In this document: in pieces, positions 6,294 through 51,516 of the stretch
Layout: every line of letters begins with the position of its first letter
How positions within the stretch are numbered: the first letter of the stretch is position 1
Assembly (NCBI GenBank): GCA_024280855.1
Contig: JAJRPG010000085.1
Span: 47,190-111,189 of the forward strand
Reading direction: 5' to 3'
Length of the DNA: 64,000 nt
Source of the DNA: Planctomycetota bacterium
GTDB lineage: Bacteria; Planctomycetota; Phycisphaerae; UBA1845
Translations under genes and position numbers: made by a program
The notes under the pieces: model-generated
Told to the model about the DNA's origin: nothing
What the model saw: only the letters and a program-made list of their open reading frames with translations
Database searches by the model: none

Positions 6294-7028
6294 ATGTTCA
6301 CGAATGAATCAAGAGAACTTACCGTCGGAGAATTAGTCGTTGAAAATCCGAGCCGGGCACGTGTGTTTGAGAAGTTCGGTATTGACTATTGCTGTGGCGG
6401 TAAGATACCGCTCGCTCAAGCCTGTGGTAAGCGTGGTGCAGATATTGAGATTGTTCTGGAAGCGTTGCAACAGTGCGAAACCGGCGCATCACCGGAGTCT
6501 CAGAAGGATTGGTCTAAGGAACCGATGACATCATTAGTGGATCATATTCTGTTGACGCATCACGCATACCTTCGCGAGGAATTTCCACGTCTGACCCAAT
6601 TGACCGAAAGGGTGGCCCAAGTGCATGGCGAGCGTCGCTCTGAATTGCTTCAAGTACGCGATGTATTTATGGCGCTGCGCAATGAATTGGAAATGCACAT
6701 GCAAAAGGAAGAGCAGATTTTGTTCCCTATGATTAAACAGCTGGATTCTGACCCGGCAGGCGAGACAGTGGGCCACTGTGGGTCTATCGCGAATCCAATC
6801 AGCATGATGGAACACGAGCACGATAATGCTGGTGATGCTTTGGGTCAGTTGCGAGATTTGACCGGAGGGTTCGTCCCACCCGAAGACGCATGCAATACCT
6901 ACCGAGTCATGCTCGACAGCTTAGCCAATCTCGAAGCGGATCTTCATCAGCATATCCATAAGGAGAACAATATACTTTTCCCGATGGCTATCGCGAGGGA
7001 GACAAATGCTGTTCACCAAAATTCTTGA
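6294..7028 (+). CDS. ytfE: Iron-sulfur cluster repair di-iron protein (RIC / YtfE / ScdA family)
   Basis: N-terminal ScdA_N motif (FGIDYCCGG) and hemerythrin-like His/Glu repeats (HHAYLREE, HMQKEEQILFP, EHEHDNAGD, HIHKENNILFP). ATG 6294 has a GGAGA RBS; alternative starts are at 6282 and 6234. Confidence 0.88.
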   Translation: MFTNESRELTVGELVVENPSRARVFEKFGIDYCCGGKIPLAQACGKRGADIEIVLEALQQCETGASPESQKDWSKEPMTSLVDHILLTHHAYLREEFPRLTQLTERVAQVHGERRSELLQVRDVFMALRNELEMHMQKEEQILFPMIKQLDSDPAGETVGHCGSIANPISMMEHEHDNAGDALGQLRDLTGGFVPPEDACNTYRVMLDSLANLEADLHQHIHKENNILFPMAIARETNAVHQNS

Positions 7029-7163
7029 TTTCGTATGACATCTTGTTGGGCAGAAGTATATCTCGTTGGTCGAGAGCCTGCACAACATGGTAATACCTGA
7101 GAATGCACACTGCGGATAATTTTAGGCGACACTGCGTCATTCTCGTACTAAAAGGAGACAAAA

Positions 7164-7247
7164 ATGGAAGCACTAGGAATTATGTCGGGATTTATGTTTA
7201 TTGTTTTTTCTTTACCGTTTTTTCTGCTCGCGCTTTTGTTTGGGTAG
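7164..7247 (+). CDS. Small hydrophobic peptide (27 aa, MEALGIMSGFMFIVFSLPFFLLALLFG)
   Basis: ATG preceded by AAAGGAG (7151-7157). Single predicted TM helix, located downstream of the NO module. It is too short for the ORF track. No homology evidence. Confidence 0.3.
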   Translation: MEALGIMSGFMFIVFSLPFFLLALLFG

Positions 7248-7654
7248 AGGCTATCTGGTGACATACTCTAGTCCACTCATGGGGGAGTGGGCTAGCGTGA
7301 TCTTGAGTCTGTCGAGTTTTTTTCGCACTCATCTGTCTGGCTTCCTTTCGATTTCTTCAACCAGCGAAGCGTGTTAAGCTTTTGTGTTAGATCCAACGAT
7401 GAGGAGCAGGAGCGATACAGGCTGCAATTTCAATGGTTGGGGGAGCGCATGTTGCTTTGAGTAGTCACGGATTGGTGTGGACCGGTTGATTATTCAAAGA
7501 CTCGCAGAATATATTTGTTGCACAACAGAACAGTATCCGCACGCCGATGAAACGCGAAGCTGTGAATAAACTTTCAGCGGGTTAGGTTTTTACGAGATTC
7601 TTACGAGACTTTGTTTTTGTGATTTTCGCTTGCCCCAAAAACCGCACTTTCAAC

Positions 7655-8997: not shown

Positions 8998-11900
8998 ATG
9001 CCCTTTGAGGTCATCATGCTATTTGCGCGAAAAAGTCTTGTGGCCTGCAGGATTTCGATTCGGCTTTTAATACCCGGGGGGGCTGCCGTGATCGTTTGTG
9101 AATCGAAAGTTGTTACCAAGTCTTTGTACCATGCCTTTTTTTGTCTATTGACTGGCTGCTTGTTGATGTTGGGGGCGTGTAATAGTGCGCCAGATATATC
9201 TTCTGGCGGGACCAACCAAGCGTCTGACACTGGAGATCCAAGTTCTGATTCTATGCCAGGTGACACTGTTGTTGTTATTGGAGCGGCTGATACCGGAGCG
9301 GATGACGACGACTTGTCACTCATCGCCAAGGCGGATGATTCGACGGACGGGCTTTGGCAGATTGGCGTCGAATCGAAGCGGCGCGTTTCATTGAATGAAT
9401 TCCGGTATGAATGGGATTTCGGAACCGGCGAGATTTTCACCGGCATGATGCAGCGCCGCGTATTTTCTAGCGCGGGTTTGTATACGATAACAGTAAAGGT
9501 GTTTAATCGAAATGACGTTGTTGTAGCTACACTTACTTTGGAAATTGATATTACGGCCCCTGGTGAACCGCCGGTGGCTGACGCTGGTCCTAATCAGGTG
9601 ACGCTTGAGGGCGACTTTGTGTTGCTTGATGGTGCAAATAGCAACGATCCCGCAGATGCGCCGCTGCTTTTCACGTGGACACAAATAGGCGGAACGCCAG
9701 TCTCTTTGGCTAATGCTGATGGCACGGTGGCAAGTTTCGCTGCGCCGCTCGTTGATGAAGACGAAACTATTCAATTCAAGCTTGCGGTGAGTAACGGTGT
9801 TAGTGTTGTCGAGGATATAGTTTTTGTTGATATTTTGAATCGAATCGATAATTCCACCAATACCCTAGTCGTTTATGCCGGTGAAGATCAGACGGTGGCT
9901 ATCGGAGAAACGGTTACGCTGGACGGTAGCCGAAGTAGCAGCACGGATGGGCCGTTATCGTTTTTGTGGACTCAGGTTTCCGGTACGTCGGTGACTATCA
10001 ATGGCGTTACAAGCAACATGGCTACTTTTGTAGCGCCGAATGTTTCCTCTGCGGACCTGTTGACATTCGAGTTAATAGCTTCTGAAGGTAGCCAAATTTC
10101 TCAGGATTTGGTTAACGTGACGGTTGAAGCGAGCGTGACTGATGACTGTCCGAGTGATGCGAATAAAACTGATCCCGGGCAGTGCGGATGCGGCATTGCG
10201 GATACGGATTCTGATGGCGACGGTGTGCTTGATTGTAATGACGGGTGTCCAAATGATCCTGGTAAAAGTGATCCGGGCACTTGTGGGTGTGGTGTTTCGG
10301 ATGTTGATGCGAATGGTGATGGTGTCGCGGATTGTACCGATCAATGTCCCGATGATCCTAATAAAAGCTCACCAGGCCAATGTGGCTGTGGCGTGAGTGA
10401 TACTGATTCCGACAACGATGGTACGCCCGATTGCAATGATGGATGTCCTGGCGATGCGAATAAAATCGTGGTTGGGATATGCGGCTGTGGCGAGCTGGAT
10501 GTTGATACCGACGGGGACGGGGCGTTGGATTGTAACGACCAGTGCCCAGCTGACGCGAACAAAACTCTGCCGGGGATATGTGGCTGCGGAAGAGCGGATG
10601 TCGATGGCGACGGTGATGGCGCTCTTGATTGTAACGATCAATGTCCCAAGGATGCCAACAAAACGCTAGCGGGTGTGTGCGGATGTGGGAATGTCGACAA
10701 GGATGTTAATGGAGATGGCATTTGTGACTCGCAGGCGCCTACGGTTAGCGACCAAAGTGCTACGACCAATCAAGACTCAGCGAAAACCATTACACTGGCT
10801 GGTATTGATTTAGACGGCGATGATCTGACGTTTAGCATTACGTCCGGGCCAGGTAACGGCTCGTTGGGTTCGGTGAATAATAGTGGGACGAGTAGTGCGA
10901 CAGTGGTTTATACCCCCACGGTTGGTTTTTCTGGCACAGACACTTTTGACTTCAAGGCGAATGATGGCGCGATAGATTCTAATGTCGGGACCGTAACGAT
11001 TACTGTCAGCGCCGTGTCGCAAAATCTGACGCTAAGTTTTTCGACCTATTTAGGCGGTAGCAGTGAAGATACGATTCGTGATGTCGTTGTTGATGCAGCT
11101 GGGTTTATATATGTTACTGGCGGCACGAGGTCTTCGGATTTCCCCACGACGGCTGGGGCTTATGACCGGACATTGAATACTGGCAGTTCGTTGGTGCATG
11201 ATGTTTTCGTAGTGAAGTATTCGCCAGCAGGTAGCATCGTTTGGTCTACTCTGCTAGGCGGGCCTGGCTACGATCGCGCATATGCGATTGAAGTGGATCA
11301 AGCGGGTTTTGTATATGTTGGCGGTAGGGCTGGGGCTGGTTTCCCAACGACTAGCGGCGTTTTGCAGCCCAATTTTGCAGGTGATGTTGATCCGAATAAT
11401 AAATATGGCACTCAGGACGGATTTGTCGCTAAACTTTCGCCTGATGGCTCAAGCCTTGTTTGGTCAACATATTTTGGCGACGACGACCGTGCGTTTATTC
11501 GAGATATTGATATCGACAGCCAGGGTTTTGTTTATTTGGCTTTGGCTGAGCTTTCGCGCACGAATCCTCATGTGACAAGCGGGGCGTATCAAACAAGTCA
11601 TGGCGGCTCTACGGATGGCGTCATTGCGAAGTTATCTACAGATGCGACGCAGGTGATGTGGGCTAGTTACTTCGGGGGCAGTGGTCGTGATGTCGGCACG
11701 CCGTCCATTCGGGTGGACTCCTTTGGGCAAGTTCATGTGCTTGGGTTTACGAGTTCAACTAATATCCCTACGACAGCAGGGGCTTATGACCGCACGTTTA
11801 ATGGCGGCAAGGGGGATTTGCATTTAGCGAAGTTTTCGGCAGATGGTTCGCAGTTGCTTTATGGAACCTATCTGGGTGGGTCCGATGTTGAGTTCACTGA

Positions 11901-12468
11901 GACGCATGGGCTGGCGCTGGATAGTGCGGGCAATGCGTATGTAGCTGCGACGACCAGGTCTACGAATTTTCCGACGACGAGCGGTGCGTTTCAAAGGGCG
12001 TATGGCGGAAATGGCGGGTCTGGAACAGGTAGCGGGACGAATTATTCCGGCGATGGTTTTGTTGCTAAAATCTCGGCAAATGGTTCTACCTTGTTATCTA
12101 GCACGTTCCTTGGTGGTCGATATGGCGATGGTGTTGAAGGCATTTCAGTGATGTCAAATGGTGATGTGTTTGTAGCGGGTACGACATTTTCTGATAATTT
12201 TCCTACCACGGCGGATGCTTACCAGAGCAATGGCGGGACCAAGGGCGACTTCTTCGGCGCGTTGCTTGCCAGTGATTTGTCATCCGTAAAATATGTGAGT
12301 TATTTAGGTGGTAGTCGCGACGATTACGGTCGAAGTGCAGCGACGGATGACAATGGCTTTGTGTACGTTGTTGGTCATACTAAATCGACGAATTGGCCCA
12401 GACTCAACGCCGCGCAGACTACGCTAGGCGGAAGTTTGGATGGGGGGATTGCTAAATTCGCGTACTAG
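8998..12468 (+). CDS. Large secreted or lipid-anchored surface protein: PKD-like Ig domains, six TSP3-like Ca-binding/Cys repeats, a cadherin/Ig-like domain and SBBP beta-propeller repeats
   Basis: Lipobox-like LLMLGAC near the N-terminus. Two PKD-like segments (PVADAGPNQ..., VYAGEDQTV...). Repeats of the form DxDxDGxxDCxDxCPxDxxKxxPGxCGCG. An FSGTDTFDFKANDG...VTITV domain. Recurrent xFVxKxSxDGSxLxxSTYLGG propeller repeats. A GTG at 9088 is an alternative start. Confidence 0.85.
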   Translation: MPFEVIMLFARKSLVACRISIRLLIPGGAAVIVCESKVVTKSLYHAFFCLLTGCLLMLGACNSAPDISSGGTNQASDTGDPSSDSMPGDTVVVIGAADTGADDDDLSLIAKADDSTDGLWQIGVESKRRVSLNEFRYEWDFGTGEIFTGMMQRRVFSSAGLYTITVKVFNRNDVVVATLTLEIDITAPGEPPVADAGPNQVTLEGDFVLLDGANSNDPADAPLLFTWTQIGGTPVSLANADGTVASFAAPLVDEDETIQFKLAVSNGVSVVEDIVFVDILNRIDNSTNTLVVYAGEDQTVAIGETVTLDGSRSSSTDGPLSFLWTQVSGTSVTINGVTSNMATFVAPNVSSADLLTFELIASEGSQISQDLVNVTVEASVTDDCPSDANKTDPGQCGCGIADTDSDGDGVLDCNDGCPNDPGKSDPGTCGCGVSDVDANGDGVADCTDQCPDDPNKSSPGQCGCGVSDTDSDNDGTPDCNDGCPGDANKIVVGICGCGELDVDTDGDGALDCNDQCPADANKTLPGICGCGRADVDGDGDGALDCNDQCPKDANKTLAGVCGCGNVDKDVNGDGICDSQAPTVSDQSATTNQDSAKTITLAGIDLDGDDLTFSITSGPGNGSLGSVNNSGTSSATVVYTPTVGFSGTDTFDFKANDGAIDSNVGTVTITVSAVSQNLTLSFSTYLGGSSEDTIRDVVVDAAGFIYVTGGTRSSDFPTTAGAYDRTLNTGSSLVHDVFVVKYSPAGSIVWSTLLGGPGYDRAYAIEVDQAGFVYVGGRAGAGFPTTSGVLQPNFAGDVDPNNKYGTQDGFVAKLSPDGSSLVWSTYFGDDDRAFIRDIDIDSQGFVYLALAELSRTNPHVTSGAYQTSHGGSTDGVIAKLSTDATQVMWASYFGGSGRDVGTPSIRVDSFGQVHVLGFTSSTNIPTTAGAYDRTFNGGKGDLHLAKFSADGSQLLYGTYLGGSDVEFTETHGLALDSAGNAYVAATTRSTNFPTTSGAFQRAYGGNGGSGTGSGTNYSGDGFVAKISANGSTLLSSTFLGGRYGDGVEGISVMSNGDVFVAGTTFSDNFPTTADAYQSNGGTKGDFFGALLASDLSSVKYVSYLGGSRDDYGRSAATDDNGFVYVVGHTKSTNWPRLNAAQTTLGGSLDGGIAKFAY
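10141..10734 (+). repeat. Six tandem 99-nt (33-aa) coding repeats (TSP3-like Asp-rich plus CGCG module)
   Basis: Six consecutive units starting DDCPSDANKTDPGQCGCGIADTDSDGDGVLDCN. The spurious alternate-frame ORFs at 10072..10669 mirror the periodicity. Confidence 0.85.
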
Positions 12469-28393: not shown

Positions 28394-28824
28394 AAAATAC
28401 CTAAACCACTAGAGTTACCCAATCTGGTAGAGCATAGTCCCATAACACAGATTCAAACGGCTCGGTATAAAGTGCCAATTACTGAGTAGTTTTATCGAAC
28501 AGCTTTAAGCATATTCTGCGCTTAAAGAACATTATTGCTATTAGTGTTTCATTTTGCTAGCATGAGGAAGCGATTTTGCGTATCCACGCGACAGGCTCTC
28601 CGTGTGGAAGGTGGGGCCACCTTCCGGTAGAGCTTGATACATCGCGCGTCCAGGGACGGTAATAAGAACAGTTGCACCTTTCGATTTAGCGAGTGATTCG
28701 CTCTGATCGAAATGGTTTCGATGGATATAGGGATAGTTTTTGCGCGTTGATTGTGTGTAATCGAAAACGGCCGAAATAGATCGGAAATTACATTTTGTTT
28801 TTTGGGAAATATCAGGAGAAGATT

Positions 28825-30642
28825 ATGAGAAAGTATCTTAGTTTAGGTATGTTGGTTTTAGGGCTGATGCTCAGCCCGGTGATGGTTCAGGCTGTTCCTG
28901 AAGGGGAAGCGTCGGATGCGTCAGGTGTTAATGACACGACGGGGATGGCTCAAGGTCTAGGCGCATTAGGTGCAACGCCATTGGAAGTAGATGGTTGGAT
29001 TTCTACGAATGATCCCGACGACATTGACTTCTACTCTTTCACGGGAACCATGAACCAATGGGTGGCCCTTGGTATTAATCACGGAGACGGTAGAGGCGGA
29101 CTTGACGACGTAGACACGGGGCTGGCCTTGTTTGCGCCAGATCAACGGTTGATCGCTCGTGATAATGACACGATGGGAAACGATCCATTGATCGCTAGTG
29201 TTAGATTACCCATGACGGGAACGTATTATGTGGCCGTGACTCATAATGACAACGAACCAAACAGTTTGTCCGGTGGCGATGTAGCATTTGTAGATCTTCA
29301 TTTGGGCGGTGAGTTAATCGTTGGCGCTATGCTCGACACAATTCAGAACGGTAATGGAGCCGACTCAGGCGACTATACGCTTACCATTGTTGACGCTGAC
29401 GTGCTCGTGCCAGTTGCTCACTCGGCATATGGCGGCGGGCAAGAAGGTCTACCGTTTGATCCAGGCAAGCGTCGCAGTCAACTTTATAACGGCGCACCTC
29501 GTGCATCAATCGGCGTTGATGGCTTAACGTTTAACGCGGTCGATGGCGATTTTGAATTAGAATCGGCTACTTTTGGGCCAGCACGTGTGTTTGATGATGA
29601 CAGTCTGGTTTACTTTTCGGTGGATTCGGGGACCGGCCGCGGCGATCTTGATGATACAGGTGTTGACTTAGCCTCAGGTAACGGGCAGCGTGCGGCTAAT
29701 GTGTATAGCTCATCACGCAACGAGTCCAATGAGTTGGCCATTGAAGCCTGGCGTATGGGATATGAGCCTGATGCTAGTCCCAATATGGACGCTCTCGTTA
29801 TGGGGACCGCCTCCGAAAACGCATACCCAGTTTTCCAGGGCAATTCGGTTGTTGATTTTGTCTATGACCACACTTTTCCAGTATATTTCACGACTGATGA
29901 CGATGAATTTGCTAACTCTGAATCTGACATTCTAGTCGTAAATTCTCCAACCGATGCACCACATGTGTTTAAGTATGCCGCTGAGCTTGGCCTTGATGAT
30001 GATGTTGATGATACCCAGATTGATGGGCTTGTCATGATCATCAAAGATGGTGTCTTAGGTGTAGCTTTTTCTCTGGAGGTTGATGGTGCTTTTGGCCTTT
30101 CTGGTACCGCAGTAGATGATGAAGAAGGTGGTTGCTATGAGGGTACAAACGTCTACTTCTCACCTTGTGATGGAACCAATGAATTGCTCATTTCCGGTGA
30201 AGATTTGGGCTTCCAATGCGGCGGCGACATTAACGCCCTCGATATGATGTTCACCCCACCACCACCACCGTCGTCAGGCACTGGCGTTCAAGGTCCACAG
30301 GGTCCACAGGGTGAAGACGGTGTCGATGGTGCAGACGGTGCAGACGGTGCCGATGGTGATGGTTTTCCAGGGCCAGTCGGACCAGCCGGGCCAACCGGAG
30401 AACAAGGTGAGCAAGGAGAAGCCGGCCCAGTAGGTCCAGCCGGTCCACAGGGCGAAGCCGGTCAAGACGGTGCTAATGGCCAAGATGGACCAGCGAGCGC
30501 TCCAGCACCAGGTCAAACTGTGCCAGAAGGTGGTACAAGCACGAATCCGCTATGCGGAACTATGAGCGTAGCCACGATTCCGACCATGCTGTTTGGCCTG
30601 CTCGCTATGGGCTTCATGCAGCGTCGCGCTCGTCGCTGGTAA
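28825..30642 (+). CDS. Secreted protein with a PPC-like N-terminal domain, a collagen-like GXY region and a C-terminal sorting-signal-like tail
   Basis: AGGAG RBS and a signal peptide. DDIDFYSF...GTYYVAVT pre-peptidase-C-terminal-like segment. About 23 GXY triplets (30283..30495). Tail [21 protein letters not shown]. Confidence 0.7.
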
Positions 30643-43954: not shown

Positions 43955-45055
43955 GTGACGGATCGCAATCTCAAAATCGTATGCGTGTGTGGTGCTCGGC
44001 CTAACTTTATGAAGATCGCGCCGATTGTGGATGCGTTACGCACTTGCAAGAACGTGGAAACTATTTTGGTTCACACGGGGCAGCATTATGACCGGGCGAT
44101 GAGCCAGTTATTTTTTGAAGAACTTGGTATCCCGGAGCCTGATGTAAACCTTGAGGTCGGTAGTGGTTCACACGCCGTGCAAACTGGTCTTATCATGCAG
44201 CTGTTTGAGCCGGTTTGTCTTGAGCATAAGCCCGACTGGTTGATTGTTGTTGGCGATGTTAATAGTACGATTGCGTGCGCGATGGTGGCAGTGAAACTTG
44301 GTATTAAAGTTGCGCATGTGGAGGCGGGGCTTAGAAGTTTTGACCGAGCGATGCCGGAAGAGATTAACCGTTTACTCACGGATTCGATCAGTGATTTGTT
44401 ATTGGTGAGTGAGCCTAGCGGTGTTGAGAATTTGCGTCGGGAAGGGGTTGCCCAAGAAAAGGTTCACTTAGTTGGCAATGTGATGATCGATACGCTTCTC
44501 CATAGCAAGGAGCGTGCGAGTGAATCGAAAATTCTTGGTGAGTTGGGCGTGAAGAAGGGCGCGTATGCCGTGGTCACGTTGCATCGGCCTAGTAACGTGG
44601 ATGATGCTGAAACGTTTGCGTCTATCCTTAAAGCATTGAAAGTTATTGCTGAAGAGTTGGCGATCGTATTTCCGATGCATCCGCGATCTCGTGCGAATTT
44701 GACGAAGTTAGGATTGGATGATGCGGCGAAGGCCGCTAACGTGAAAATTGTTGATCCGCTTGGTTATCTTGATTTTCTAAAGTTGACAATGGATGCGGCT
44801 ATGGTGCTGACGGACTCTGGCGGTATTCAGGAAGAGACGACGATTCTTGGTGTGCCTTGCCTGACGCTGCGTGAAAATACGGAGCGGCCTATTACGATTA
44901 CCGAAGGGACGAATCGCTTGACCGATTGTGATACTGAGGCGATTTTGCAGGCGTATGGTGAGATTCGGGAGTCGCCACCCTGTGGCACCGCTCCGGCGCT
45001 GTGGGACGGTCACGCTGCGGAGCGTATCGTTAAAATACTTGTGGAATCATGTTGA
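43955..45055 (+). CDS. wecB: UDP-N-acetylglucosamine 2-epimerase (non-hydrolysing)
   Basis: GARPNFMKIAP, HTGQHYD, GDVNST, HVEAGLRS and DSGGIQEE motifs. Confidence 0.9.
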   Translation: MTDRNLKIVCVCGARPNFMKIAPIVDALRTCKNVETILVHTGQHYDRAMSQLFFEELGIPEPDVNLEVGSGSHAVQTGLIMQLFEPVCLEHKPDWLIVVGDVNSTIACAMVAVKLGIKVAHVEAGLRSFDRAMPEEINRLLTDSISDLLLVSEPSGVENLRREGVAQEKVHLVGNVMIDTLLHSKERASESKILGELGVKKGAYAVVTLHRPSNVDDAETFASILKALKVIAEELAIVFPMHPRSRANLTKLGLDDAAKAANVKIVDPLGYLDFLKLTMDAAMVLTDSGGIQEETTILGVPCLTLRENTERPITITEGTNRLTDCDTEAILQAYGEIRESPPCGTAPALWDGHAAERIVKILVESC

Positions 45056-45133
45056 GCGGATACCGTGGTGCGGTAAATTAGAATTCATAGGTTCACTGCT
45101 TCGAGGCACAGCAGTGGAAGGAGTTAGATAGCG

Positions 45134-46450
45134 ATGAAGATGGCGGTTGTGGGGACCGGTTATGTTGGCTTGGTAGCAGGCACTTGCTTTGCGGAAAGCG
45201 GGAACCGGGTGATTTGTGTTGATTGCGACGCGCAAAAAATCGAGCGACTCAAGCAGGGTGAGATTCCTATATACGAGCCGGGCCTGACTGAGTTGGTGAC
45301 GTCTAATGCGCGATCTGGCCGATTGACTTTTTCGACAGATTTGGAAGAGGCGATAAAAGATTCGCTGGTTATTGTCATCGCTGTGGGTACGCCGCCTAAG
45401 GCGGATGGCTCTTCCGATCTTTCCGCGATATTGAATGTAGCTACGACGATCGGTAAGACCATGAATGGTTATCGCATCGTTGTGATGAAAAGCACGGTTC
45501 CTGTTGGCACGCATAAGTTAGTATCAGATACGATATCACAATTAAGCGATCACGCCGTTGATTATGTGAGCAATCCTGAGTTCATGAAGGAAGGGGCTGC
45601 GATTGATGATTTCATGAAGCCCGACCGCGTGGTGATTGGTGCGAACAACCCCGCTGTGGTGGAAATCATGCGTGAGTTGTATCAGCCTTTTATGCGCCGC
45701 ACGGATCGTATTTTAGTCATGGACCCGGCTAGTGCAGAGATGACGAAGTACGCAGCGAATGCGATGTTGGCGACAAAAATATCTTTCATGAACGAAATTT
45801 CGGGGCTATGCGATCATTTTGATGCGGACATTGAGATGGTGCGTCATGGCATTGGCTCTGATTCGCGTATTGGTGATGAGTTTTTGTATGCGGGCGTGGG
45901 GTATGGCGGTTCTTGTTTTCCCAAAGATGTTAGTTCGCTAGTTTCTATGGGCGCGCGTGCTGGACACCGAATGCATGTGGTCGAAGCCGTCAATGATGTG
46001 AATCAAATTCAGCGACAGCGCTTTGCGAAAAGAATTGTTGACCATTTCGGAGAATCATGCTCTTCCAAGACCGTGGCTGTGTGGGGTTTGGCTTTTAAGT
46101 CTAAAACGGATGACATCCGCGAGTCACCAGCTATTGATTGTGTAAAAATATTTTTGGAAAAAGGCATGAAAGTGCAGGCGCATGATCCTGAGGCGATGGC
46201 TAATGCTGCGCGTGAATTGGGCGACGGGGTTAAGATGTGTGATGATGCTTATGAAGCGCTTGACGGTGCTGATGTGCTGGTGGTCTTTACGGATTGGTCA
46301 GAGTTTCGCACGCCGGATTTTGATATGATTGCGGAAAAGATGCCGAGTAGATTGATTTTCGATGGCCGAAATATGTATGAGCCTCAGGTGATGGCTAAGC
46401 GCGGGTTTCATTATCATTGCGTTGGTCGTCCTTCGGTGACGCCGGCGTAG
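45134..46450 (+). CDS. ugd: UDP-glucose 6-dehydrogenase (nucleotide-sugar dehydrogenase)
   Basis: GTGYVGL Rossmann motif, NPEFMKEG, catalytic GGSCFPKD, and the C-terminal UDP-binding domain. Confidence 0.9.
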   Translation: MKMAVVGTGYVGLVAGTCFAESGNRVICVDCDAQKIERLKQGEIPIYEPGLTELVTSNARSGRLTFSTDLEEAIKDSLVIVIAVGTPPKADGSSDLSAILNVATTIGKTMNGYRIVVMKSTVPVGTHKLVSDTISQLSDHAVDYVSNPEFMKEGAAIDDFMKPDRVVIGANNPAVVEIMRELYQPFMRRTDRILVMDPASAEMTKYAANAMLATKISFMNEISGLCDHFDADIEMVRHGIGSDSRIGDEFLYAGVGYGGSCFPKDVSSLVSMGARAGHRMHVVEAVNDVNQIQRQRFAKRIVDHFGESCSSKTVAVWGLAFKSKTDDIRESPAIDCVKIFLEKGMKVQAHDPEAMANAARELGDGVKMCDDAYEALDGADVLVVFTDWSEFRTPDFDMIAEKMPSRLIFDGRNMYEPQVMAKRGFHYHCVGRPSVTPA

Positions 46451-46482
46451 CGTTGGGTTGGTGCCAATTGGTTTCCAAAAAC

Positions 46483-47436
46483 ATGAGTAATATTGTTGTT
46501 ACTGGTGGAGCGGGTTTTATCGGTTCGCATCTTTGCGAGGCGCTGCTTCGTGATGGGCATAATGTTATTGCGCTGGACTGTTTCGATGACTTTTACGACC
46601 CGGCGGTAAAGCGCCGCAACCTTGTTCATGCCCAGGCCTACTCTCATTTCATGCTGGTTGAAGGGGATATTCTCGATCAGTCTTGTGTGTTTGATACGAT
46701 CGACAATCAAACCGATGTCGTTGTGCATCTAGCCGCTCGTGCGGGCGTGCGGCCTTCCATTGAGCAGCCCTTGTTGTACCAGGATGTGAATGTTCGTGGC
46801 ACGCTGAATATACTGGAGGCTTGTCGCAAAGTTTCGAATTGTAAACTTATCGTAGCTAGTAGCTCCAGTGTTTATGGCAACCGCAAGGAAGTTCCTTTTC
46901 GTGAGACTGACGCGGTTGACGATCCAATTTCTCCGTATGCTGCAACGAAAAAATGTTGTGAATTGCTGTGTCATACCTATCATCATTTATACGATTTTCC
47001 TATTGCGTGTCTACGATTTTTTACAGTGTACGGGCCAAGACAACGGCCTGACCTTGCCATTCATAAGTTTGCCAAATTGATCGAAGCGGGTGAGCCGATT
47101 CCCGTTTTTGGTGACGGCAGTATGATGCGTGATTTCACTTATATCGACGACATCATTCAGGGTGTAATGTGCGCGATTGATCGGAGTGAGGGTTATCGCG
47201 TTTACAATCTTGGCGAGTCTCAGCCGGTGGCTCTGAGAGATTTGATTTCGGGATTGGAAAAAGCGTTAGGGAAAAAAGCGATCATCGACCGTCAGCCATT
47301 GCAGCCTGGGGATGTTGAGCGGACCTATGCCGACATTGATCGAGCGCGAGAGGAGCTAGGTTATAATCCATCCACCGATTTCGAGACGGGCTTGCAACAT
47401 TTCGTGACTTGGCTACGAGATGAGTCCAACGCTTGA
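46483..47436 (+). CDS. NAD-dependent epimerase/dehydratase (UDP-glucuronate 4-epimerase-like SDR)
   Basis: VTGGAGFIGSH, SSSSVYG and the YAATK catalytic motif. The ORF opens at 46417, overlapping ugd, but the conserved N-terminus starts at 46483. Confidence 0.85.
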   Translation: MSNIVVTGGAGFIGSHLCEALLRDGHNVIALDCFDDFYDPAVKRRNLVHAQAYSHFMLVEGDILDQSCVFDTIDNQTDVVVHLAARAGVRPSIEQPLLYQDVNVRGTLNILEACRKVSNCKLIVASSSSVYGNRKEVPFRETDAVDDPISPYAATKKCCELLCHTYHHLYDFPIACLRFFTVYGPRQRPDLAIHKFAKLIEAGEPIPVFGDGSMMRDFTYIDDIIQGVMCAIDRSEGYRVYNLGESQPVALRDLISGLEKALGKKAIIDRQPLQPGDVERTYADIDRAREELGYNPSTDFETGLQHFVTWLRDESNA

Positions 47437-47764: not shown

Positions 47765-48250
47765 GTGAAACAGAAAGTGCAAATACCTTTGCGAAGCGCC
47801 CTCATGCGTGGATTTACTCTTGTAGAATTGGTATGCGTGGTTGTCATTATTGGCATGATGGCCACTATCGCAGTCCCAAGGTTTGGCAATTCCATTGCGT
47901 TGCATCGAATTGAATCGGCCGGCAGGCGTATCGTGGTGGACCTTGCGCTTGCACAATCACTGGCCAAAACTACAAACAAAAGTATCAAAGTTAAGTTTGA
48001 TGTTGCTTCAAATTCGTACATTTTGAGTAAAATACCACACCCTGACCATCCAAGTCGCGAATACGAAACATTTCTACAAGAGGAACCTTACGTCGCCACC
48101 ATTGAATCCGTAGATTTTGGGGGAGGCAACGACATTAAATTCGATGTGTTTGGTGTTCCAGATAATGGTGGATCGATTGTCATCCGTGTGGGAAATAGAG
48201 TTCGAACAATTTCGGTTGACGCAGACACGGGGAAGGCCAGTGTGCTATGA
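47765..48250 (+). CDS. Prepilin-type minor pseudopilin, GspH/FimT-like
   Basis: The leader ends RG|FTLVELVCVVVIIGMMATIAVPRF (class III signal with Glu+5). 161 aa. ATGA overlap with the next gene. Confidence 0.75.
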   Translation: MKQKVQIPLRSALMRGFTLVELVCVVVIIGMMATIAVPRFGNSIALHRIESAGRRIVVDLALAQSLAKTTNKSIKVKFDVASNSYILSKIPHPDHPSREYETFLQEEPYVATIESVDFGGGNDIKFDVFGVPDNGGSIVIRVGNRVRTISVDADTGKASVL

Positions 48251-49413
48251 CAACCCTGCGTAAGCATAAGAAGCCACGTCGTCATCCTGTGCGCCGATTA
48301 GGTTTCACGCTCGTTGAGTTAACCATGAGCATGGCTATCATGACCATTCTCATGGGCACTATGACATCTGTCATAGTCGTCGCTAGCCATGCCATTCCCG
48401 ACAGCCAAGATCCCATCACAAAAAAAATAAAAGCCATGGAAATAGTAGATCTGATGGCTAGTGAGATTTTCTATGCAAATGCCATTACGGAGGCATCAGT
48501 AAATTCTGTCACCTTCACTGTCGCAGATCGCGGACACGGCGCCGCTGGGCCGGAAACTATTCGTTATGAATGGTCAGGGACGCCGGGCGATCCACTCACA
48601 CGGCAGTACAACGGCGGAACAGTTACAACAATAATTGATGATGTTCAGCTTTTCACACTGGTCTTCACGGCGAGCACTAAGCCGCTGCAAGGGGCACCGA
48701 AGGTGCTGCTCGTGGTTGGCGACGACGTATCTCTGAACGCCCAGGACCTGGCCAAGCAGGCACTGATCGAATCCTTTGGATTCTCGGTCCAGATAGTCGC
48801 AGCGTCCAGAAGTGTGGCGGAATTCAGCCCTCTCATCGCCAGCCACGACGTCATGTACATCTCAAACCAGATTACCAAGGCCGATATTCTCAACAAGTCC
48901 CTGGATCTTGCGATCGGCATAATCACCGAGAAGCGTAAGCTATACGACGACTTGGGAATCGCAGCGAAACCAAGCTGGGATGATTTGGACAGAGTCCACT
49001 TAATCGACAACACACACGAAATTACATCCCCCTTTGCCATCGGAGAAGTGATCATTTGCGACTCGACCCAGCAACTCAACTACATCACGAAGACCAAACA
49101 CGCCCCTGGGCTTCAAATCCTGGCCGATTGGGCTGGCTGGCCCGAGTTGTCCGTCCTTGACCTTGAAGCCGAGCAGTACGGCGGCGGCACCGCTAAGGGT
49201 CGTCGTGTGCAGCTACCCTGGGGTGACTCAACAAATTTTGACACGAATAGCCTGAACACGGACGGTCTAACCATCATGCGTCGAGCGATTGCCTGGGCAG
49301 CTGCACGTGTTGTGTACACTGGCGCCCGCATCGACTTGCAATTGAACGGTGTTTCAGTGGCTGCCAGATCGCAAGTGTCGATTCTTAACAAACCCAAAGC
49401 GATTGCGCCATGA
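48247..49413 (+). CDS. Prepilin-type pseudopilin (PulJ/PilW-like N-terminal part) fused to an unassigned ~200-aa alpha/beta domain
   Basis: RRLG|FTLVELTMSMAIMTILMG signal. The C-terminal domain (48697..49305) is paralogous to the one in the next gene. ATGA overlaps at both ends. Confidence 0.65.
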   Translation: MTTLRKHKKPRRHPVRRLGFTLVELTMSMAIMTILMGTMTSVIVVASHAIPDSQDPITKKIKAMEIVDLMASEIFYANAITEASVNSVTFTVADRGHGAAGPETIRYEWSGTPGDPLTRQYNGGTVTTIIDDVQLFTLVFTASTKPLQGAPKVLLVVGDDVSLNAQDLAKQALIESFGFSVQIVAASRSVAEFSPLIASHDVMYISNQITKADILNKSLDLAIGIITEKRKLYDDLGIAAKPSWDDLDRVHLIDNTHEITSPFAIGEVIICDSTQQLNYITKTKHAPGLQILADWAGWPELSVLDLEAEQYGGGTAKGRRVQLPWGDSTNFDTNSLNTDGLTIMRRAIAWAAARVVYTGARIDLQLNGVSVAARSQVSILNKPKAIAP

Positions 49414-51035
49414 TGCTTATTAATGCCAGGAGCAATCTTAGTGCTATGCGTCGCCGAGGGCTAACGCTGCTCGATATACTCATCTCCATTCCGCTCGTAG
49501 GCATCGCTCTGGTGGCGGCATTAAACACTGCCGGCGCGTCCAAAGCCTCCCAGTATAAAGTCAACAATATGCGACAGGGCCATTTACTAGCCCAGGATTT
49601 AATGTCAGAAATTCTGCAGCAGGACTTCTATGACTCAATAGATGGATTTTTAAGTTTTGGACAAGAGGGTATTGTACCAATCACGTTGAATCGTAGCCTA
49701 TTCGACGACACGGATGATTACAACTTATGGCAAGCCTCTCCACCACAGTACAAAGATGGAACGGAGATGAGCGATTTGCCAGATTGGCAACGCACAGTTG
49801 ACGTCGCATGGCGAATGCCAGCAGATTTACAACAAATCTCAGCTACAGCTACAACTATTAAACATATTCGAGTGAATGTTTTATACAAAGGTATGGCTGT
49901 TGCCGAAATCGAAGCCTTCAAGACAATAGGTCTACCACCGCTGGAAGCTTGCTGTTTTGCTGGCAGTTTATGTGAGAATTTGCGCAGCGAAGCTTGTACA
50001 TTACAAGGCGGGACCGCGCTTGGGACGAGTACGAATTGCGCTCTTAGCGCATGTCCTGCAGGACCTAAAGTTTTGTTAGTCGTGGTTGATGACACCGCTT
50101 TAACTGCACAAGAATTAGCTCAGAAGGTACTCATTGAATCATGGGACAATAGTGTTGTGCTTATCTCGGCGTCGGCCATGCTCTTCGAATTTGATGCGGC
50201 GGTGGCTGACGCAGACGTGGCATTCATTACTGTGGGGATTACATCAAGCGATCTGGGCACCAAGTTAACCGCCGCCGCAATCGGCGTTGTGAATACGCAT
50301 CCCGAATTACTTTACGACCTCAAGTTTTCATCCGGGGCCGCTTACTATTATGATTTGAGCGCTGGCGTAGTTATAGACAACACTCATCCCATCACATCCA
50401 CTTTCACCAATGGTCCCCTGACCTTTTCGACGACTAATCAATGGTTTGTGGAAAATCAGAACGGCTTAGCTAGTGGTGCTCAGGTTCTAGCAGTACTCAC
50501 TGATTCGACTAGGGCTTCGCTGTTTGTCTTCGAGGCAGGAGCCTCATTGGTGGGAGGCACACCGTCACCAGGTCGTCGAGTTGAATTGCCTTGGGGGTTT
50601 ACAGACTTCGACTTCAGTACACTCACGGCGGATGCACAGACAATTATGAAAAACGCCATAGAATGGGCTGCTGCGGAAAATATTGCAGCGATTGCGGTGT
50701 GTGGTGACGGCACATGCGCGGTGGGTGAGGAATGCAGTTGTGTGGCCGACTGCGGACCGCCAACCGTTTCCGAGATCATTAACTCCACATGCAATGATGG
50801 CAAAGACAACGACTGCGATAACTTAACCGACTGTCAAGAGTTATCATGTTTTCTTGATCCTGCATGCGCGGTGGTATGCGGTAATAATGTTTGTGACAAT
50901 GGTGAGGATTGTAGTAGTTGCGCCGCAGATTGTCCTGGAAAAACTAAGGGGAAGAAACCTAAACGATATTGTTGTGGGAATGGAATTGCTGAATCAGCTG
51001 AGGGCGATGGGAGCATTTGCGATGGAAACTACTAG
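49410..51035 (+). CDS. Atypical pseudopilin (GspI/PilV-like, G|LTLLD with Asp+5) with two Cys-rich modules and the same ~200-aa domain
   Basis: RRRG|LTLLDILISIPLVGIALVAAL. Cys-rich linker (EACCFAGSLCENLRSEACTL...CALSAC). Domain at 50064..50675. 119-aa Cys-rich tail containing NDGKDNDCDNLTDC and CGNNVCDNGEDC. Confidence 0.65.
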   Translation: MMLINARSNLSAMRRRGLTLLDILISIPLVGIALVAALNTAGASKASQYKVNNMRQGHLLAQDLMSEILQQDFYDSIDGFLSFGQEGIVPITLNRSLFDDTDDYNLWQASPPQYKDGTEMSDLPDWQRTVDVAWRMPADLQQISATATTIKHIRVNVLYKGMAVAEIEAFKTIGLPPLEACCFAGSLCENLRSEACTLQGGTALGTSTNCALSACPAGPKVLLVVVDDTALTAQELAQKVLIESWDNSVVLISASAMLFEFDAAVADADVAFITVGITSSDLGTKLTAAAIGVVNTHPELLYDLKFSSGAAYYYDLSAGVVIDNTHPITSTFTNGPLTFSTTNQWFVENQNGLASGAQVLAVLTDSTRASLFVFEAGASLVGGTPSPGRRVELPWGFTDFDFSTLTADAQTIMKNAIEWAAAENIAAIAVCGDGTCAVGEECSCVADCGPPTVSEIINSTCNDGKDNDCDNLTDCQELSCFLDPACAVVCGNNVCDNGEDCSSCAADCPGKTKGKKPKRYCCGNGIAESAEGDGSICDGNY

Positions 51036-51516
51036 ACACCGCGCGGTTCGGTCTGCCACCAGCCTGAATGCGAACAAGTTTCGCCGCCGCGCTGTAGCCT
51101 ATATCTACTTTTTGAGTTCCACGTTACTCGTCTCTGTTATTGGCTTGTCAGCTTTGATGTTCTCACGGATCCAAAGGCGATCGACTCAAGGTAGCAATCA
51201 ATCCATAGTGGCTCGTTTCTACGCTCAATCTGCACTGGAACTTGGCTTTGCACAAATCAACCTGGACTCAGACTGGCGTACAACATTAAGTACTGGTACA
51301 TGGTTCTCAGCTATGCCAATAGGGCAAGGTAGTTATAGCCTTGATGTGTCCATCGTGAAAAACGGTGACGGTAACACCAACAACGACCCCGTCTTACTCA
51401 TTGGCACCGGCATTTGTGGTCAATCAACCCATAAAATAGAAGTAACACTCGTCCCCTTATCTGATAATGGTGGATTAGTGATTTCCGGTGCAGGATGGAA
51501 ACGTAACACAGGTTAG
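51022..51516 (+). CDS. PilX-N/GspK-like minor pseudopilin
   Basis: The ORF 50854..51516 overlaps the previous gene out of frame. ATG 51022 gives a basic leader, a hydrophobic helix (AVAYIYFLSSTLLVSVIGLSALMF) and a RFYAQSALELGFAQI PilX-N-like helix. Confidence 0.55.
   Translation: METTRHRAVRSATSLNANKFRRRAVAYIYFLSSTLLVSVIGLSALMFSRIQRRSTQGSNQSIVARFYAQSALELGFAQINLDSDWRTTLSTGTWFSAMPIGQGSYSLDVSIVKNGDGNTNNDPVLLIGTGICGQSTHKIEVTLVPLSDNGGLVISGAGWKRNTG

Follow-up and report, generated by a model that had tools for sequence, protein, structure and literature searches.

An uncatalogued amidotransferase-like module carried by minor pseudopilins of a four-gene cassette in Planctomycetota

In a 64,000-nucleotide stretch of contig JAJRPG010000085.1 from a Planctomycetota bacterium (hereafter the window, within which positions are counted), the region 47765-51516 is best explained as a translationally coupled four-gene cassette of minor pseudopilins, with GspH/FimU-, GspJ/PilW-, GspI/PilV- and GspK/PilX-like members in that order. 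The second and third genes of the cassette (genes 2 and 3) each carry one copy of a module of about 210 residues whose predicted structure has a class-I glutamine-amidotransferase (GATase)-like fold, referred to below as GATase1-like. Across Planctomycetota, Gammaproteobacteria and further phyla, the family to which this module belongs is linked almost exclusively to subunits of type IV filaments. We infer, with moderate confidence, that it would serve as a tip-displayed, non-catalytic binding module on the modular minor pilins of the cassette.

Comparison of the two proteins by BLASTP returned a single collinear alignment, in which residues 150-350 of gene 2 pair with residues 218-419 of gene 3, with 81 identities in 204 positions (40%), 5 gaps and an E-value of 4e-31; at the level of sequence, this similarity is far beyond chance. 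Such collinear paralogy between adjacent proteins had been pointed out in a first-pass annotation made from the letters of the window, and its details held on recomputation: the intervals given there translate exactly to residues 151-353 of gene 2 and 219-422 of gene 3, a recount of the first 56 aligned residues again gave 28 identities, and the shared blocks are present as quoted (IDNTHEITSPF and IDNTHPITSTF, GRRVQLPWG and GRRVELPWG, IMRRAIAWAAA and IMKNAIEWAAA). The paralogy is old, because for either copy more similar orthologues exist elsewhere (P0063, 61%; P0123, 56%). A recent local tandem duplication of the module was rejected on the same ground.

Sequence searches of Pfam, NCBIfam and the PDB, carried as far as E 10, left the module segment unrecognised. 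Pfam ThuA gave no match to genes 2 and 3 at E <= 1, and 59 family members searched at E <= 10 yielded no ThuA, GATase, GIFT-related or other recurrent Pfam family, so that the ThuA/GATase assignment put forward in the first-pass annotation found no counterpart among Pfam profiles. A PDB profile search with the module retrieved no GATase and nothing else of relevance, and hhalign comparison with verified PabA and TrpG sequences, in global as well as local mode, returned probabilities of at most 0.2%. The clusters that contain family members are named 'hypothetical protein' only, and a literature search on amidotransferase-like pilin modules or planctomycete minor pilins found nothing pertinent. 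By these searches the domain is an uncatalogued and unnamed family for which Pfam and NCBIfam hold no model; the possibility, also raised at first pass, that it would turn out to be a known pilin-associated adhesin domain did not apply. An exhaustive HMMER profile search collected 1,980 clusters (defined at 50% identity) at E <= 1e-3, of which 673 also passed E <= 1e-30; a word-indexed protein search, which yielded three relatives, had largely underestimated the family. The domain usually occurs as two to four head-to-tail copies. The 3,060-residue protein P0145 holds nine very divergent copies about 300 residues apart, with domain scores of 14-39 bits. In another protein, P0003 (197 residues, from ENA), only the C-terminal 80 residues match the family and the N-terminal 90 are unrelated; it is probably chimeric or derived from a misassembled short contig.

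From an alignment of four sequences AlphaFold2 produced an unusable model (predicted local distance difference test, pLDDT, 36); from an alignment of 59 copies the gene 2 module was modelled with a pLDDT of 94.8 and a predicted template-modelling (TM) score of 0.91. A Foldseek search of the PDB with this second model returned 49 matches at E <= 1e-3, nearly all of them to the class-I GATase-like superfamily. TrpG (1i1q_B) matched with an E-value of 4.5e-7 and a TM-score of 0.60, the ThuA-like protein 4e5v_A ranked sixth (E 4.9e-6, TM-score 0.59), and further matches included the GATase of GuaA (2d7j), STM1381 (3soz), SpuA, gamma-glutamyl hydrolase and the oligosaccharyltransferase chains 6c26_B and 6s7t_G, which from their length we take to be Wbp1/OST48. 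The TM-scores are alike, at about 0.6, for the ThuA-like, TrpG, GuaA and SpuA structures, and the ThuA-like protein is thus no closer than the others. Of the first-pass proposal of a ThuA-like or GATase1-like fold, then, the class-I GATase-like part is borne out by structure prediction and Foldseek, with ThuA-like 4e5v among the matches, and the Pfam searches and TM-scores offer nothing specific to ThuA. In its sequence the module is a member neither of the ThuA family nor of any GATase family.

Conservation was counted over 386 distinct copies and 213 alignment columns, and residues are given below in domain numbering. The share of cysteine is at most 5% in every column. At the beta4 'nucleophile elbow' the sequence is I-G-V-V-(N/S/T)-E; its Glu is conserved in 80% of the copies, with Thr taking its place in gene 3 and Ala in the gene 3 orthologue P0123. 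On the penultimate strand, G-R-R-V-x-L-P-W-G stands in the position of the GATase sequence G-V-Q-F-H-P-E, so that L178 and W180, on either side of the conserved P179, occupy the positions of the GATase His and Glu. The Cys-His-Glu triad is therefore absent from the sequence of the module, and the check for catalytic-type residues suggested at first pass came out negative for the triad. The residues that are conserved are R175 and W205 (100% each), H112 and R174 (97% each), P179 (96%), G162 (95%), R201 (93%) and K72 (90%). Both window copies keep the Arg pair, His, Trp, Pro and Lys (R319/R320, H257, W350, P324 and K217 in gene 2, all family-invariant); in gene 3 the elbow Glu and R201 are missing, with T/H in place of E/K at the elbow and N replacing R at position 201. 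The strand register would place D14, S/T61, (N)E83, H112 and W180 at the C-terminal strand ends, that is, on the former active-site face opposite the domain termini, and E30, D56, K72 and R174/R175 at the N-terminal ('bottom') strand ends near the linkers; such an arrangement would point to an acidic/aromatic pocket at the distal side and salt bridges networked at the proximal side.

The four open reading frames (ORFs) of the cassette lie in the same orientation, on the forward strand, and have overlapping starts and stops in the ORF list (47765-48250, 48247-49413, 49410-51035 and 51022-51516). Genes 2 (388 residues) and 3 (541 residues) overlap by 4 nucleotides, and gene 1 (161 residues) is directly upstream. 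For gene 4 the internal ATG at 51022 was judged the best start, which gives a product of 164 residues ending at 51516. A pattern search of the whole window found prepilin-type N-termini in genes 1, 2 and 3 only. The region thus presents four adjacent, co-oriented genes, three with prepilin leaders and one K/X-like and devoid of Glu5, as in a minor-pseudopilin cassette, and the synteny is conserved in about 30 loci.

Gene 1 (47765-48250), the putative GspH/FimU-like subunit, matches Pfam N_methyl with 23.1 bits (cut-off 21.2) and GspH weakly; its NCBIfam matches to GspH (E 1.5e-9, 38 bits against a cut-off of 80) and to Verru_Chthon cassette protein D (E 5.5e-10) are both below cut-off. A gene of this type is kept in first position in L001, L005 and L070. 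The pilin scaffold of gene 2 (residues 1-145, 48247-48681) consists of a leader ending in VRRLG and followed by FTLVE, a hydrophobic helix and the first beta-strands; it passes N_methyl with 22.6 bits against the same cut-off of 21.2, its N-terminus alone matches NCBIfam Verru_Chthon cassette protein C (E 7.7e-5), and that N-terminus is 35-70% identical to about 40 orthologues in which the domain is present or absent. The module follows at residues 146-358 (48682-49320), supported by the AlphaFold2 model, Foldseek and the family profile search, and residues 359-388 with the stop codon (49321-49413) lead back to the pilin fold. Because this tail, of the pattern 'G.RI.LQ........v..LN.P...P', is common to orthologues that have no insert or another insert, the module of gene 2 is an insertion into the pilin fold, placed just ahead of its last beta-hairpin.

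The organisation of gene 3 is different, in that its module is grafted C-terminally. Its PilV/GspI-like pilin part (residues 1-177, 49410-49940) was recognised by the pattern search, which found a leader ending in RRRG, the prepilin-like continuation LTLLD, in which Asp replaces the Glu at +5, and a hydrophobic helix; NCBIfam PilV matched weakly (E 0.0097, 16.4 bits against a cut-off of 52.2), and there was no Pfam match. The first-pass view of both carriers as pseudopilin-like is thus upheld by a profile for gene 2 and more weakly, by the pattern and the PilV match, for gene 3. A Cys-rich linker with 6 Cys in 41 residues (49941-50063), kept in P0123, P0148 and P0126, precedes the module, whose family profile envelope covers residues 214-427 (50049-50690). 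The C-terminal region with the stop codon (50676-51035), which has 18 Cys in 119 residues, is kept in P0123 and P0126. The module of gene 3 thus lies between two disulfide-rich segments that together hold 24 Cys, against a single Cys in gene 2, which is consistent with an extracellular location. The C-terminal region contains the Cys-rich repeats CG.G.C..GE.C..C..DC and CNDG.DNDCD and shows a weak teneurin match (E 0.0042). Orthologues of gene 3 are P0123, P0148 and P0127, and in L070 the orthologue stops right after the pilin part. Gene 4 (51022-51516), the putative PilX/GspK-like subunit, has an N-terminal helix that lacks Glu5 and itself gave no match in the profile libraries. About 30 loci keep it in the fourth position of the cassette, and it shows homology (E 1e-7) to the first 150 residues of the giant planctomycete proteins of L061, L064, L065, L067 and L073, of which L061 matches NCBIfam T2SS_GspK at E 2.3e-8 (33.9 bits against a cut-off of 130).

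A genome scan with the orthologue alignment, which returned 79 loci, revealed how the module is distributed over the subunits of planctomycete cassettes. Three classes of gene-2-type pseudopilins can be told apart, all with the first 140 or so residues and the C-terminal tail 'V.I.LQ.G....R.et.vq.LN.PEv' in common: proteins of about 170-225 residues that have no insert (L077, with 179 residues, L039 and L072), proteins of about 365-390 residues with a different insert for which Pfam gave no match (L070, L015, L036, L043, L045, L051, L054 and L058), and those with the GATase1-like insert (the window, L001-L005 and L009). The different insert comprises about 190 residues at the same point (L070 7995-9110), looks beta-rich by eye and contains the motif 'WSTDGGASW'; a second protein with a similar domain is encoded upstream in L070 (6050-7480). 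Among the gene-3-type proteins the module is C-terminal in P0127, P0148, L015, L030, L033, L053, L054, L072 and L076, and nothing follows the pilin part in L070. In a Phycisphaeraceae metagenome-assembled genome (MAG), the gene 3 orthologue (L005 9140-10360) has Laminin_G_3 (E 1.7e-21) at the site where gene 3 of the window has the GATase1-like module and Cys-rich repeats, and the gene 2 orthologue of the same locus retains the GATase1-like insert. In the gene-4-type giants of L061, L064, L065, L067 and L073 the module stands directly after the pilin-like part and is followed by LamG repeats. Accordingly, the module is found on gene 2 only in L005, on gene 3 only in L015, L054, L030, L033, L053, L072 and L076, on both in the window, L001, L002 and L004, and on gene-4-type proteins in the five loci just named; in Planctomycetota, three of the four cassette subunits have thus acquired it as a graft. 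An obligate heterodimer of the gene 2 and gene 3 modules was rejected, many cassettes holding one copy only. Between L001 (8001-9173) and gene 2 of the window the pilin part is 69.5% identical and the module 39%, whereas P0063 is about 61% identical to gene 2 throughout; the contrast seen with L001 suggests either replacement of the module between paralogues or accelerated evolution of the module.

Outside Planctomycetota the domain is found in Gammaproteobacteria (including Woeseiaceae, Ectothiorhodospiraceae, Thiogranum and Methylococcaceae), where proteins of 1,300-1,700 residues hold two to four of them in tandem, and in Rhodothermales and Rhodospirillales MAGs. The gammaproteobacterial giants start with the PilX-like helix 'QRGY.LLPVV...A.YVAEAGL.HA.W', and matches to PilX_N, weak but recurrent, were obtained for five of six N-termini. 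At L013 5880-9836, L044 6504-11066 and L047 6504-11123 the giant comes fourth in a minor-pilin cassette, behind H-, I- and J-like pilins, and the cassette belongs to a type IV pilus gene cluster; the L013 cluster has GspE/F-like genes, PilM and a secretin on its flanks, and the downstream set of L044 is similar. These three giants (1,318-1,539 residues) combine CBM96/DNRLRE, Disaggr_repeat, two or three GATase1-like copies, LamG and choice-of-anchor J. CBM96/DNRLRE, Disaggr_repeat and Laminin_G_3 are the companion domains of the module, and CBM96 has been described as an alginate-specific module (PMC9971899). When intact N-termini were classified, 15 of 94 were prepilin-type and 67 were transmembrane helices lacking Glu5, mostly PilX/GspK-like, which makes 82 of 94, or about 87%; the remaining representatives are mostly 5'-truncated versions of the same types. 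The fusion that had struck the first-pass annotation as unusual is therefore the rule within this family. A minority are ordinary secreted proteins (L025, L038, L062, L069 and P0090), among which P0090 (2,653 residues) has vWA, HYR and PKD-like domains, two C-terminal copies of the module and an ordinary signal-peptide-like N-terminus. At L042 536-4510, on a contig assigned by binning to a Halobacteria archaeon MAG, lies the gene for a protein of 1,324 residues with three copies and a PilX-like N-terminus of the gammaproteobacterial type; this contig is probably mis-binned.

The sets GspH-I-J-K and FimU-PilV-PilW-PilX form a complex that primes and caps type IV filaments, and by analogy the products of the window cassette would build such a priming and capping complex. 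The module inserted in gene 2 and that appended to gene 3, between disulfide-rich linkers, would then be displayed at the filament tip, where they would act as non-catalytic ligand-binding, that is, adhesion modules, the most likely ligand being a glycan or anionic polysaccharide. They would be interchangeable with LamG and CBM96 lectin modules and would work alongside them. Such a non-catalytic, ligand-binding role is suggested by the loss of the triad, by the exchange with a lectin at the same site and the lectin-type companion domains, by tandem multiplication in which all copies are conserved, and by the faster divergence of the module relative to its scaffold. Sugar binding has also been proposed for the non-catalytic GATase1-like GIFT domains of GldG, IFT52 and OST48 (PMC7226087). 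A bolder version of this proposal, which we regard as possible but doubtful, takes the triad-less amidotransferase fold to be a dedicated, phylum-spanning tip module: a receptor that acts like a lectin towards anionic polysaccharides of the sea, for example alginate or sulfated glycans, with the former active-site face pointing away from the filament, shuffled among J-, I- and K-type subunits and multiplied in tandem so as to tune pilus adhesion in planctomycetes and sediment Gammaproteobacteria.

Several observations weigh against a tip-displayed binding module. The assignment of the J-like and I-like subunits depends on sub-threshold matches, no filament machinery genes were found among the scanned window ORFs of at least 150 residues, and the lost-triad positions were mapped by motif and secondary-structure register, not by three-dimensional superposition. 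R175, R174 and H112 hardly vary in any of the tandem copies, which might equally mean catalysis or a purely structural role, and the array of the gammaproteobacterial giants, held between lectin modules, would fit a stalk or spacer as well. As an alternative, the modules might form a rigid stalk or oligomerisation scaffold, packing in cis within arrays or in trans between genes 2 and 3, that builds or stabilises a bulky tip, projects distal lectin modules and binds no ligand. Two to four tandem copies are the norm, the array just mentioned lies between CBM96/Disaggr and CBM96/LamG modules, and the conserved E30, D56, K72 and R174/R175, if indeed at the bottom strand ends, would suit salt bridges or an inter-domain interface; moreover, GATase1-like domains oligomerise elsewhere, as in the trimerisation domain of GH42 beta-galactosidase. 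We nevertheless think this unlikely, since planctomycete cassettes differ in their number of copies, which is one, two or more with varying placement among the subunits, and no fixed pairing of genes 2 and 3 is required, gene 2 has nothing distal to project, and the module is exchangeable with a LamG lectin at the same site and evolves faster than its scaffold.

Less probable still is a filament-displayed hydrolase or lyase acting on polysaccharide or peptide through a non-canonical site formed by His112, Glu83 and Arg174/175 in the amidotransferase-like cleft. Conservation of H112, R174, R175 and K72 would agree with such an enzyme, as would a fold superfamily rich in hydrolases (gamma-glutamyl hydrolase and SpuA are among the matches), a peptidase module noted among modular pilins (PMC8179133) and the co-occurrence of carbohydrate-binding modules, as in carbohydrate-active enzymes. 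The module, however, offers no nucleophile given the scarcity of Cys in every column, its elbow Glu is only 80% conserved overall and gives way to Thr in gene 3 and Ala in P0123, and Leu and Trp stand at the His and Glu positions; in addition, all tandem copies keep the same residues, which is atypical of repeated catalytic domains, no sequence relationship connects it to any enzyme family, and its divergence outpaces that of the scaffold. We consider it very improbable, finally, that a ThuA-like module with a role in trehalose or sugar metabolism was fused to pilins by chance. The ThuA-like structure 4e5v is among the top fold matches, as said, and the mid-domain loop 'D-N-x-H-x-I-T' resembles the H-P-I-T loop named at first pass; yet the ThuA profile was silent throughout the 59 family members, the fold comparison favours ThuA no more than TrpG or GuaA, no ThuB-type oxidoreductase or sugar transporter adjoins the cassette, the carriers are extracellular filament subunits, gene 3 having its 24 Cys, and the fusion is systematic rather than accidental. 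A tip-displayed, non-catalytic binding module remains the reading that we prefer.

Directly upstream of the cassette (window 43955-47436) are genes for a UDP-GlcNAc 2-epimerase, a UDP-glucose-dehydrogenase-family protein and an NAD-epimerase, sugar-nucleotide enzymes that might have to do with pilin glycosylation or with the synthesis of exopolysaccharide. In L005 an ORF with an NAD-epimerase-like N-terminal motif, recognised by eye, also precedes the cassette (6382-7311), which is not so in L001. Downstream and convergent to the cassette lies a chemotaxis cluster encoding CheB, CheR, CheX, a receiver-domain (CheY-like) protein, HDOD, CheD and FapA. A scan for promoters and terminators gave nothing above shuffled sequences, and there is no tRNA downstream. 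Elsewhere in the window, two other large surface-type proteins are encoded, one of 1,156 residues with PKD, bacterial Ig/cadherin-like and SBBP beta-propeller repeats (8998-12468) and one of 615 residues with a collagen triple-helix repeat (28795-30642).

Minor pilins decide what type IV filaments bind, and most of their modules are unannotated. The family described here serves as a marker for type IV filament tip subunits, in Planctomycetota as well as in sediment Gammaproteobacteria and further groups, and it brings the amidotransferase fold into the set of modules presented by pili. The analysis also exposes an insertion hot-spot in the J/W-like pseudopilin, which may hold the GATase1-like module, a beta-rich domain that has no Pfam match, or nothing. 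With respect to the libraries and literature searched, the domain family, its near-exclusive use at type IV filament tips across phyla and the J/W-like hot-spot are new; modular pilins, tip cassettes and the GATase1-like fold were already known, and no concept is overturned. The defined module boundaries and residues provide concrete constructs for testing pilus adhesion in environmental bacteria.

The module resembles the class-I GATases TrpG, PabA and GuaA-N (1i1q_B, 8rp2 and 2d7j) in its predicted fold (Foldseek E 4.5e-7 to 1e-5, TM-score about 0.6, probability 1.0) and departs from them in having no sequence or profile similarity, no Cys nucleophile, Leu/Trp at the His/Glu positions and an extracellular context. 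With the ThuA-like (4e5v), STM1381/GATase1_like (3soz) and GIFT (GldG/IFT52/OST48-Wbp1) proteins it would share a fold devoid of the triad and a place among accessory modules of surface or glycan machines, but in sequence it belongs to none of these families, and to our knowledge none of them is known as a pilin module. The cassette as a whole is reminiscent of the Verru_Chthon cassette proteins A-D (TIGR02596-TIGR02599), which also form a four-gene prepilin-like cassette in the Planctomycetes-Verrucomicrobia group. Genes 1 and 2 have proteins D and C of that set as their best NCBIfam matches; these reach 39.7 bits against a cut-off of 70 and 22.1 bits against 256.5, and are confined to the N-terminal helix, which does not amount to membership.

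Closer parallels are found in type IV filament systems. In type II secretion, the tip pseudopilin GspK has an alpha-domain inserted in its pilin beta-sheet (PMC8179133); likewise, the extra domain of gene 2 is inserted within the pilin beta-sheet, in a cassette of the H-I-J-K type. The insert is alpha/beta and GATase1-like rather than an alpha-domain, however, and sits in the J/W-like subunit, and the K-like gene 4 of the window has no module. The best precedent is offered by the modular pilins PilB (vWA) and PilC (ConA-like lectin) of Streptococcus sanguinis, for which a tip location is predicted (Raynaud et al. 2021, PMC8179133). As in other modular pilins, the subunits described here bear an extra globular, non-pilin module, which folds independently in the model, occurs in other architectures and is missing from orthologous pilins. 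They are set apart by a GATase1-like fold, which is not among the architectures in PMC8179133 and the supplements searched, by a module family for which Pfam and NCBIfam have no signature, and by the fact that in the window two adjacent subunits carry paralogous copies, one of which is inserted and not grafted C-terminally. Like modular type IV pilins, on the other hand, they are small pilins with a class III signal peptide that carry a bulky module, presented probably at the tip, and a LamG/ConA-like module occupies the equivalent position of the orthologous L005 cassette.

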